From: Candidatus Micrarchaeota archaeon
GTDB taxonomy: Archaea > Micrarchaeota > Micrarchaeia > Anstonellales > Bilamarchaeaceae
Direction: 5' to 3'
DNA length: 27,669 nucleotides
NCBI GenBank assembly: GCA_043816005.1
Contig: JBDRIM010000001.1
Span: forward strand, 1 to 27,669
Positions within the stretch are counted from its first letter, which is position 1. Each line of letters starts with the position of its first letter. Below, in pieces: positions 1-3,000 of this stretch. Made by a program: the position numbers.

Positions 1-3000
1 AGTACACATCGACCCCGCGGTTTGGTACATCGCTGTCGGCTTGGGACATCCTGGTCGTGTAGGAGCGGCCAAGGGTTGGGTTGTTCATCCATTAAAGTCC
101 CACATGAGCTGGGTTCAGTACGTCGCGAGACAGTACGGTAGTATCTCCTGGGAGTGTAGCCTCTTGAGAGTAAGGATCCTTGAGTACGAGAGGAACGGGG
201 ATTCGGCGCCTCTAGTCTACCGGTTGTGAATTGCATTGCCGGGCAGCCACGCGCCACGTCGATAAGACCTGAAAGCATCTAAGGTCGAAGCGACTCTTAA
301 AACGAGGAGGCATATACCGCGGATATCAGATCCGCTTGATAGAACTGGGGTGTAATGCGCTAGGGAAACCGAGCGTTTCAGCCCGCAGTTACTAACGGTC
401 TAATCCATATATTACACTTAGTTCGTATTGTGGCGTAAGCCATAGACGAACAAAAAAGGGATATTGAAATTCTCCTTGGATTGTCATTTTGCAAGCTTCG
501 GCGAGCAAAAATTAACAAACTAAAACTTGTCGTTACCTTCATTCACGTATGTTTTTTGCTTATCGATTTTTCGCGTCCGCGCGAAAAATTAGCAACGACA
601 AAAATGATGCGATTTTTTATTTTTAAAATGATTAGCGTAAGCGATAAGTGTGAATTTATAAATATTACTGGACAAATGTAAAACAAAAATAGATCAGGAA
701 TATTTATGGGTCGCGGAAAACGAATGAATAGTGTGGAAATTATATCATATGTTCAAATTATCAATTTCTCTGGTAAAGGATATGTCTGTAAAATCCGTGG
801 AGAAGGTAAAAAAGAAAGAATAACAATTTTAGGTAGAGTAGATGGTCCTGGGAAAAGTCTAGACGATGCTTCTTTTGATGCAGAAACTTTACGAACAGCG
901 AAAGGTGGTAAGGTTGCGCTTGCTTTAGTTGACGAAAAATATTATGTAATAAACCCTATAAATTCAATGCAGGCACAACAATTAGAAAAACAAATTGCAG
1001 AACACAGAAGAAATGGACGTGTTGCTGAATTTAAAGTGCATCACTCTAGTTGACATATACACAAAAGACCACCTTTTTAAACTATTTTATACTAAATAAA
1101 AATATGACTGACACAGTGCTATATATAGTTCACTCACCACCTAGTACTATTTGTGATTGGGGTTTTGATGGACTGCCAATTGGTGTTGATAAAAGAACAA
1201 TACACATGGCAAAAATAGCTAAAGCAATCAAATTTGCACTGAAGAATGATCTTCCTATTATAATTGAAAGTGCTGGCGGACCAGGACGAGAATTAGATAA
1301 ATTTTTATTAGAACAAAATCTTCCAGAAGGGAGAGTTAAAGTGGTACATACAGCCGAAATTGATAACCCAGAAACTGCAGAACCAGTATTTAGAGGACAG
1401 AAAATAGAACGATTTATTGTAACTGGATATTTTAAGGAACTCTGTTGTTTGAATGCAATAAAAAATCTTAGACGATCTTTCCCAGATGCTGAAATAATAA
1501 TACTTAGAGGAGATAATAGTATTTCTTGGAGAAATGCAAGACTACCATCACAATTTCAAGTTATAAAGGATGGATTTAAAGAAAAAAGAAGGGAACTAGA
1601 TGTGAAAGTCCGCCCACTTAATCGTAAATTGGCTATTTAGTTTCCGTTACTGGTTTCTTTTCCTCTTGTAACTTTTTTGCTCTTTGTTTTAAGTAAAACC
1701 AAACTCCTAGAATTCCTAGAAAATAGACTATGAAACCATATACTAAACTCGTACCATAATCCATTTTATCTCTGGCCATGAGCTGATATGCTAACGTAGA
1801 AGTGATAATATTTGCAAGAAGAGTTAAAAGAAGAAAACCAGTTATTAGCAGAAAAAATAACGAAGCATTGAGAAATATTGAAATTACCCCGGATAAAAAG
1901 GTTAAGATTAGTAGAGCAATTGTGACCTTAATACCTAAATATACGTGTTTTTCTTCCATAAACATCATCAAGTTATTTTTTCTCTACATCCATATTAACA
2001 CTAATTACTTTTTTCTCCTCTTCAGTTGCTTTGAAATATTCTTTTTGTTTCATTCCTAAAACACTTGCTGCAACAGAATCCGGAACGGATGCAATTCTTG
2101 TATTGTAAAGTAAAACAGAATCATTGTAAAATTCTCTTCTATCAGCAATCTGGTTTTCCATGGCAGCTAATTGCTCCTGTAATTTCAAGAAATTTTGACT
2201 AGCTTGGAGTTGAGGATAATTTTCAGCAACTGCAAATAATGATTTTAAACCTGTAGTCATAGCATCATTTATTTTTGCTTTTGCACTTGGACCCTCAGCA
2301 CTCATCATATCAGTTCTTAATTTCGTAACCTCTTCAAGAACTCCTTTTTCATATTTTGCATATCCTTTTACAGTCTCAACCAAGTTTGGAATTAAATCAT
2401 TTCTTTGTTTTAGCACGACGTCTATATTAGCCCAGGATTTGTCTATGTTATTTTTGAGAGAAATTAGGCCATTGAATATTGAAATAATATAAAATAGTAC
2501 TAAGACACCAATAACAAAAACAAAAAATCCACAGCAAGCAAATAAAGCAAGTTCAGCAGCCATAAAAAATCACCATTTTTTATATTTGTTGAGAATGTAA
2601 TGCATTCTCGACTGTCATGGAGCATCGCTCCATAACATGACCGATGCAATAGGTCAACGCAATTTAAACACCTATAACAGTTAGAGTAATTAATAATCCT
2701 ATAGCAGCAAGTATAAATCCTATGCCAAACGCAATCCAAACAGAGCCGCCAATTTTATCAGCTGCTTTTTTCTCATTTGAATCACTAATGTACATCCTAT
2801 TCTCAATTTTTCCTTTTCTTATGACAAGATTTTCATGTTGAACTGCACTTGCAGTTCCTTCATTTGGTTCTGCACTACCAAGCACATAAAGAGGATCTCC
2901 TTCTGCTATAAAAGATTCAGTGATCCGAAGCTCGGTATATGCGTACCGCATAAATATTGTGAGGATAGTTGGATCTGCATTTAGATATTCCAAAACTTTT

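Follow-up and report, generated by a model that had tools for sequence, protein, structure and literature searches.

A natural A2503C substitution at the peptidyl-transferase centre of 23S rRNA, common to several archaeal groups

Adenine 2503 of 23S rRNA (E. coli numbering is used throughout) is called universally conserved in the ribosome literature, and its conservation is explained by the sensing of nascent peptides. It lies at the tunnel entrance and is also the adenine that RlmN and Cfr methylate. According to the text of Koch et al. (PMC5499644), who apply the term universally conserved to both A2062 and A2503, a hydrogen bond from N6 of A2062 to N7 of A2503 passes on the arrest signal of ErmCL-type peptides in bacteria, where the bases at 2062, 2503 and 2586 add little to protein synthesis. 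Replacement of A2503 by cytosine is known from the laboratory, and the texts of the two reports describe viable, chloramphenicol-resistant bacteria: E. coli without chromosomal rrn operons grows when A2503C rRNA is its only 23S rRNA, with a chloramphenicol EC50 of 24.9 versus 4.4 uM (PMC4533973), and a spontaneous resistant mutant of Rhodothermus marinus (rrlA10) carries the same substitution (PMC8614978).

Natural changes in the peptidyl-transferase centre (PTC) have likewise been described, within 2447-2453 and 2500-2504, in a survey of GTDB by Nissley et al. (bioRxiv 10.1101/2024.11.12.623245). Its main text names Thermoprotei and Methanomethylicia as the groups concerned and 2447, 2453, 2500, 2501 and 2504 as the positions changed, and it attributes the tolerance of a change next door to 2503 to a shorter uL3 and a flipped base 2504. 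The main text of that preprint mentions neither 2503 nor Micrarchae- or DPANN, but its Fig. 2a, the entropy plot of its Extended Data Fig. 2a and its supplementary alignments probably contain variation at 2503, so that such data may already be public, if undiscussed. Archaeal C/D sRNAs such as RF00095 (snoPyro_CD) and RF01312 (sR9), which carry a pair of 12-nt guides between C, D', C' and D boxes and close with a terminal stem, are known to target helices 89-93, including U2552; in the text of a review (PMC7994747), modification at U2552/G2553 is described as always present, and neither 2504 nor 2503 is named. The archaeal cytosine reported here is identical to the laboratory allele but differs from it in being natural, fixed in whole groups and accompanied by other PTC changes and an adapted guide RNA, and resistance due to it is known from bacteria only.

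The window (the whole stretch of 27,669 nucleotides analysed here, from the forward strand of contig JBDRIM010000001.1 of a Candidatus Micrarchaeota archaeon) begins inside a 23S rRNA gene, of which the 3' fragment, domain V from about position 2471 to the 3' end, occupies positions 1..414 on the + strand. This fragment scores 367 bits against the archaeal LSU rRNA family RF02540 (gathering threshold 50; cmscan, model positions 2566-2987, 5' end cut), and its helices are intact, one of them supported by the compensatory pair A2589U and U2605A (seen in the alignment, with the pairing taken from the cmscan structure line). Numbering was taken from a gap-free alignment to E. coli K-12 rrlB, with the Haloarcula marismortui 23S gene from plasmid pHMA288 as second reference, and gives 29 = 2499, 33 = 2503, 34 = 2504, 82 = 2552, 116 = 2586 and 132 = 2602. 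A preliminary description of this DNA had identified the C at 33..33 (+ strand) with A2503; the alignment upholds the identification, with A in both references, and the sequence that the description gave for positions 30-41 was reproduced, with posterior '*' across the stretch and an upper-case consensus A opposite C33 in cmscan. At 2503 the window thus has the base that defines the chloramphenicol-resistance allele.

The preliminary description was right that the A-to-C change is real, but it is not the only one in the window, which also carries C2499A (29..29, + strand), a second change in the PTC loop, and U2586C (116..116, + strand), in a tunnel residue that the text of Koch et al. (PMC5499644) describes as required for ErmCL stalling in bacteria. 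C2499A accompanies A2503 in many Nanoarchaeota rows and is therefore not tied to C2503. The Thermoprotei-type PTC (C2500, A2501 and C2504, with A2447 and C2453) is absent: the window reads U2500, C2501 and U2504, all canonical. BLAST with the 23S loci of four relatives found no further 23S pieces in this genome, and because the remainder of the gene is absent from the assembly, positions 2058-2062 and 2447-2453 can be read in relatives only; one relative (L010) is canonical at 2447 and 2453. An Rfam family search of the genome returned 0 matches, yet cmscan of the window detects the fragment, and we take the discrepancy as a limit of that search with short fragments.

We compared the fragment with four metatranscriptome assemblies from four studies; the matching contigs belong to identical or closely related organisms and not necessarily to this one. 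A contig of 966 nt from run X3 (depth 1443) spans window positions 1-136 with zero differences, and record 17 of X3 is the only RNA contig to bridge the site with at least 31 letters on either side; runs X1 and X2 hold shorter identical pieces that cover position 33 near their ends. No other letter was seen at position 33, a weak result given that depth there is dominated by short foreign contigs, and RNA-library contigs may contain DNA and do not reveal base modification of the C.

Searching a sample of the phylum with a pattern that accepts any base at 2503, we obtained matches in 91 of 401 genomes, all 91 with C and none with the reversed control. They comprise 72 of the 137 genomes of the same order (this one included) and 19 of the 264 from other orders, so that fixation within the order, as first proposed, holds in 72/72 matching genomes; records titled Anstonellales or Anstonellaceae (L035, L036) carry the same stretch. 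What other Micrarchaeota have at this site, which had been left unresolved, was read by picking 46 genomes from non-matching families, of which 42 gave a BLAST match. Among the best 30 rows, 14 come from outside the two families f12 and f13; every one of these carries C2503, and nine carry G2505A as well. The other 16, all from f12/f13, divide into 15 with A and one with U. Another search, of 80 f12/f13 genomes, matched 44 of 78 (two unpublished ones were left out) and added 45 rows, 44 with A and one with U, which brings f12/f13 to A in 59, U in 2 and C in 0 of 61 rows.

A scan of GTDB for bases other than A at 2503 listed at least 115 loci, among them 98 with C, 14 with U and 3 with G; two of the loci (L033, L108) are not rRNA, and seven of those listed are bacterial-type 23S. 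Records whose titles do not fit their 23S type (L022, L030, L041, L055, L058, L089, L105) were left out as evidence for groups. We then read the site group by group, with groups named after the record titles of the sample centres; each centre was chosen for its non-A letter and so adds one non-A row to its group, kin are not independent, and genomes that failed to match mostly have unassembled or pattern-breaking rRNA. In the Thermococci-titled class, 82 of 101 genomes matched, with 83 matches that divide into 82 C and one A; Thermococcus-titled contigs with C2503 include L029, L039 and L049. The lone A match (G476) has flanks unlike the rest. All 22 matches from the Altiarchaeota-titled phylum (21 of 41 genomes) are C. 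Because of U2504C, the pattern performed poorly in the Iainarchaeum-titled phylum (3 of 51 genomes; two C, one A), and BLAST with alignment was used instead: 38 of 49 other genomes matched, and 29 of the best 30 loci align at the site, every one with C2503 and U2504C. C also prevails in the Undinarchaeota-titled phylum (4 C and 1 A; 5 of 17 genomes matched). A is commoner in the Hadarchaeum-titled phylum (12 of 31 genomes matched; 8 A and 3 C once G751, both of whose matches look micrarchaeal, is set aside), in the Nanoarchaeia-titled phylum (34 A, 4 U and 1 C; 39 of 91 matched) and in the Thermoplasmatota-titled phylum (12 A and 2 C in 14 matches from 13 of 61 genomes).

The survey, whose scope was the groups just listed and, for the Halobacteriota, H. 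marismortui, contradicts the description of A2503 as universally conserved. It also bears out the earlier suspicion that C2503 is less rare than the Rfam consensus suggests, but not the framing of the substitution as a trait of "this lineage", as C2503 dominates in most Micrarchaeota families and in the sampled Altiarchaeota, Iainarchaeota and Thermococci. We read C33 as a genuine, long-fixed natural A2503C of a functional 23S rRNA, common to several archaeal groups. From its near-fixation in the class, we infer that cultured Thermococcales model species share it. For no cultured Thermococcales species mentioned by name do the texts of the papers examined give the sequence of the PTC; position 2503 does not occur in the available text of two structure papers on archaeal hibernation factors and one paper on Pyrococcus H/ACA, nor do the sequence motifs occur in the text and one supplement of a Thermococcus Cbf5 paper.

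The history of the site was examined on a FastTree phylogeny of 139 fragments (about 870 columns, with PTC columns masked), built after the removal of duplicate sequences and of rows that aligned poorly upstream or over fewer than 700 columns, 12 rows being returned by hand. Families f12 and f13 form one clade (support 1.0) within a clade of C-bearing Micrarchaeota (1.0), to which Altiarchaeota are sister (0.976); Iainarchaeota did not join Micrarchaeota and Altiarchaeota on this fragment tree, whose deep branches are weak. Parsimony requires at least 12 changes at 2503, some to C, some to U and some returning to A, and does not decide between A and C at the root. In f12/f13, A2503 is most simply a reversion, and on this tree C is the older state in Micrarchaeota. 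Their PTC is the most rewritten in the survey, with ten or more changes: a typical row departs from the two references alike at 2056, 2062, 2064/2446, 2448, 2453, 2499, 2505, 2507, 2582 and 2586, and most f13 rows do so at 2500 as well.

The best explanation for C2503, and in our judgment a reasonably probable one, is that it is a tolerated natural A2503C, under which translation would proceed normally, the constraint on the site would be relaxed and insensitivity to drugs would be a by-product. Bacterial work suggests that the base at 2503 would be dispensable for peptide-bond formation. Cytosine, as a pyrimidine, has no N7 and so would accept no hydrogen bond from N6 of A2062, and by analogy with bacteria the A2062-A2503 relay, through which ErmCL- or SecM-type signals reach the active site from the tunnel, would be lost; U2586 too is changed in the window. 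Chloramphenicol binding would be weakened, as it is with A2503C in bacteria, and the ribosome would be a substrate for neither RlmN nor Cfr. The last point agrees with the genome, which has C at 2503 and, in an assembly that is 86% complete, no match at all to RlmN (TIGR00048), for which none of five genomes tried, this one included, gave a match over the cut-off. RlmN is missing from archaea with A2503 too (G016, G519), and its absence therefore does not explain which lineages changed. Relaxed constraint appears the likeliest route to fixation, since RlmN was not found and archaeal PTCs tolerate change around 2500-2504, but fixation that spans whole phyla and is seldom reversed may point to selection for C instead of drift. 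Nearby compensation is not required: in L198, of the class Thermococci, A2503C is the sole change among the PTC-ring positions at which E. coli and H. marismortui agree. Other groups carry further changes, namely U2504C and G2576U in Iainarchaeota, G2505A and G2576U in several micrarchaeal families and A2062U in f12/f13.

The distribution could instead reflect an adaptation, whether structural or thermal, of a thermophilic ribosome in an ancestor, comparable to the C changes of Thermoprotei and maybe ancestral in several deep lines. The near-complete fixation in Thermococci (82/83) and the presence of C in Hadarchaeota (3/11 without G751) and in the Undinarchaeota-titled phylum (4/5) fit such an origin, as do the ambiguous root and the link drawn in the main text of the Nissley preprint (bioRxiv 10.1101/2024.11.12.623245) between C changes at 2554/2555 and heat stability. 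However, A is the base of the Rfam archaeal consensus, of H. marismortui and of most Thermoplasmatota and Nanoarchaeota. C is moreover fixed in Thermococci-class lineages that we take to be mesophilic and in others that we take to live in groundwater, and we consider a thermal origin unlikely.

Selection for protection from PTC-binding antibiotics made by neighbouring microbes is another conceivable cause, and the same lineages do accumulate further changes in the drug site, at 2504, 2505, 2576 and 2062, all presumably resistance positions. The allele itself confers chloramphenicol resistance on two bacteria, as the texts of PMC8614978 and PMC4533973 report. Yet it is fixed in Thermococci, hyperthermophiles that would seldom encounter such drugs, it was given up again in f12/f13, and bacteria, in which drug pressure is highest, supply only the seven bacterial-type 23S mentioned among the at least 115 non-A loci listed, all of which makes this cause quite unlikely.

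At the relay partner, A2062 is retained in 92/92 well-aligned C2503 rows (144 of 216 rows passed the filter); the position changed, 2503, is the one studied by Koch et al. (PMC5499644). In the f12/f13 rows that have A2503 and in which 2062 could be read, by contrast, 49/55 have U2062 and 6/55 have A2062. In the first sample the separation had been perfect (U2062 in 14/14 such rows, and A2062 in the genus with U2503), and on the first tree all three changes at 2062 fell on branches that also change at 2503, as would be expected if the two sites co-evolved, the two adenines never occurring together because an A2062-A2503 pair is actively avoided. In the larger sample, though, A2062 occurs in 6 of the 41 further A2503 rows of f12/f13 in which 2062 could be read; these six rows with both adenines rule out the strict form of the rule, and active avoidance of the pair is very unlikely.

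The rRNA stretch around C33 is matched by a guide RNA encoded elsewhere in the genome. An intergenic box C/D sRNA lies on contig C73 at 48111-48159 (+ strand) and shows the expected architecture: its C, D', C' and D boxes are all perfect, and it has two guides and a 4-bp terminal stem. It scores below the gathering threshold of every Rfam C/D family (39.6 bits at best, against 45 for RF00095) and so belongs to no curated family; a strict guide scan (at least 9 unbroken pairs) missed it, and a box-based scan found it. Its D guide pairs with 2500-2511 (window 30..41, + strand) at 9 Watson-Crick pairs, 1 G-U pair and 2 mismatches (at 2500 and 2507) over 12 positions. The nucleotide methylated under a C/D guide is the one opposite its fifth base. 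Here the base opposite C2503 is the fourth, a G, and the fifth lies opposite U2504 (U34), which by this +5 rule alone is the predicted target and to which the guide RNP probably adds a 2'-O-methyl group. The preliminary description had correctly noted that the sRNA exists and that its G faces C33, but the pairing is incomplete and the predicted target is U2504, not C2503. The D' guide pairs with the A-loop stretch 2548-2559 (window 78..89, + strand) at 10 Watson-Crick pairs, 1 G-U pair and 1 mismatch and has U2552 (U82) as its predicted target, a modification site described as conserved (PMC7994747), which makes a good internal control for the prediction.

A pattern blind to the D guide, run on 80 chosen genomes, detected homologues of this sRNA in 23 (reversed control 0), and the guide follows the rRNA. 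The base facing C2503 is G in 22/23 homologues, the exception (G074) having A, and the base facing 2505 is U in 4/4 genomes with A2505 and C in 18/19 with G2505. Five complete sRNAs from f12/f13 (G016, G024, G038, G058, G175) were recovered from 15 genomes with a pattern that required A or U opposite 2503; in 5/5 a U faces A2503 and the target is again U2504, and the D' guide is different. A control pattern with G or C opposite 2503 gave 2 matches in 5 genomes, neither in register. The f12/f13 search gave five other matches in four genomes and another in G279, each either incomplete or not in register, and guide-like matches in G060, G010, G011, G279, G665 and G760 were discarded as incomplete or coding-like. 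Of five genomes tried from the class Thermococci, one (G414) encodes a complete sRNA, which forms 11 Watson-Crick pairs with the stretch 2500-2511. Compensatory changes between guide and target occur at 2503, 2505, 2507 and 2510.

This covariation supports both the pairing and a transcript that carries the base of the gene. The mature rRNA might in principle differ, either by editing of the C to U or by a methylated or acetylated C that imitates A in its role: the guide G could pair with U as well, the G074 guide has A at that place, and m5C, Cm or ac4C would not be visible in cDNA. But C is the letter in those RNA-library contigs that match the window exactly, and in genomes with A2503 the guide has U instead and so tracks the DNA letter, which leaves such a difference a very slim chance indeed. 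An artefact of assembly, binning or alignment, which might be feared for a site 33 bases from a contig end in a genome of 85 contigs and with some GTDB matches plainly mis-binned (e.g., L022, L030, L055), is refuted by hundreds of independent genomes with C, many of them assembled as a single contig, by the gap-free alignment to E. coli and by guide covariation, and its probability is negligible.

What is described here is A2503C as the natural, fixed state of archaeal groups; the laboratory allele and divergent archaeal PTCs were already known. We found no paper that describes natural C2503 in archaea, in a search whose scope excluded most subscription literature, including the journal version of Nissley et al. 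and older comparative rRNA work; 2503 is likewise absent from the text, figures and supplements excluded, of two preprints from the Melnikov lab on the evolution of drug sites. As a separate observation, chloramphenicol was used at 30 ug/ml in an ARMAN enrichment (PMC5468238), which is uninformative as to 2503.

On the widest reading, which is possible but which we offer only tentatively, C2503 would be ancient and common to Micrarchaeota, Altiarchaeota, Iainarchaeota and Thermococci, so that whole phyla, hyperthermophiles used as genetic models among them, would lack the A2062-A2503 sensor and be insensitive to tunnel-entrance antibiotics; the guide-directed methylation of U2504 would have been retained and re-tuned each time the adjacent base changed, and in Micrarchaeota C2503 would have paved the way to the PTC of f12/f13. 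Compared with the Thermoprotei case in print, micrarchaeal PTCs are altered at a larger number of positions, and the survey charts how the site that binds phenicols and related drugs varies in nature. Because several archaeal phyla do without A2503, the explanation of its conservation by peptide sensing becomes testable on natural ribosomes; Thermococci, which carry C2503 almost alone among PTC changes, offer a route to such a test. If cultured models share C2503, the cryo-EM models PDB 6SKF and 9SRE would already show how the C is placed, and the genetics exist to restore the A.

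Substitution of position 2503 (E. coli 23S numbering) is accompanied in some other archaea by further changes in the peptidyl-transferase centre. In 23S genes of the Iainarchaeota group (loci L147-L176), C2503 occurs alongside U2504C in all 29 aligned rows, drawn from the best 30 loci, and these genes also carry G2576U, mostly A2448G, and often C2452U and G2509U. Among the best 30 of 42 matches, nine micrarchaeal rows (L122, L126, L127, L131, L134, L138, L142, L144 and L145) combine G2505A with G2576U: 2505 and 2576 are two bases that changed together in these rows. The guides of their C/D sRNAs directed at U2504 are altered correspondingly, matching the rRNA.

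Other letters are also found at 2503. Among the matches listed, U2503 is present in records titled Woesearchaeota or Nanoarchaeia (L012, L053, L058, L059, L077, L190 and L191; the title of L058 does not fit its 23S type), and a small clade close to Iainarchaeota (L007, L065, L078) has it together with U2062. A few bacterial-type 23S genes in which 2503 is C, U or G (L023, L086, L087, L092, L101, L052 and L116, again among the matches listed) come from records titled Rhodothermus sp., Lentilactobacillus parakefiri, Clostridia and Bdellovibrionales, and may represent single alleles or errors.

Within several Micrarchaeota, insertions interrupt a 300-nt stretch of 23S domain V (genomes G007, G052, G091, G006, G056, G152 and G020); in G007 and G052 the break falls between the equivalents of window positions 27 and 28, adjoining A2497-C2498. 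Three stem-loops follow the 3' end of the 23S fragment in the window (415-600; z-score -3.66 against shuffles). At Rfam gathering scores the window yielded neither a 5S nor a tRNA gene, so no 5S lies immediately downstream of the 23S gene. By Pfam, the window further encodes a GIDE-domain gene adjoining lemA (2664-3431), a protein of 997 aa (6600-9593) that has a clostripain (C11) peptidase domain at its N terminus and a further ~560 residues that gave no Pfam match, and an ordinary A/V-type ATP synthase operon (14782-23268; subunits I, K/c, E, C, F, A, B and D).

In a C/D sRNA from a Thermococci-class genome (L267, G414:C1:1410140-1410250) the guide to U2504 is the D' guide, and the D guide is presumably complementary to the 16S 1400 region. 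In sRNAs of two micrarchaeal families with A or U at 2503, f12 and f13 (L265, L266, L271, L273, L274), the U2504 guide is combined with a different, conserved D' guide. Both families are large, and their peptidyl-transferase centre is strongly altered (rows among L120, L121 and L124-L146, plus L218-L263): A2062U (mostly), C2064U/G2446A, A2448G, A2453C, C2499A, G2505A, U2586C, C2507G with G2582A or C and, in most f13 rows, U2500C. The changed positions outnumber the six reported for the divergent Thermoprotei centre (bioRxiv 10.1101/2024.11.12.623245).
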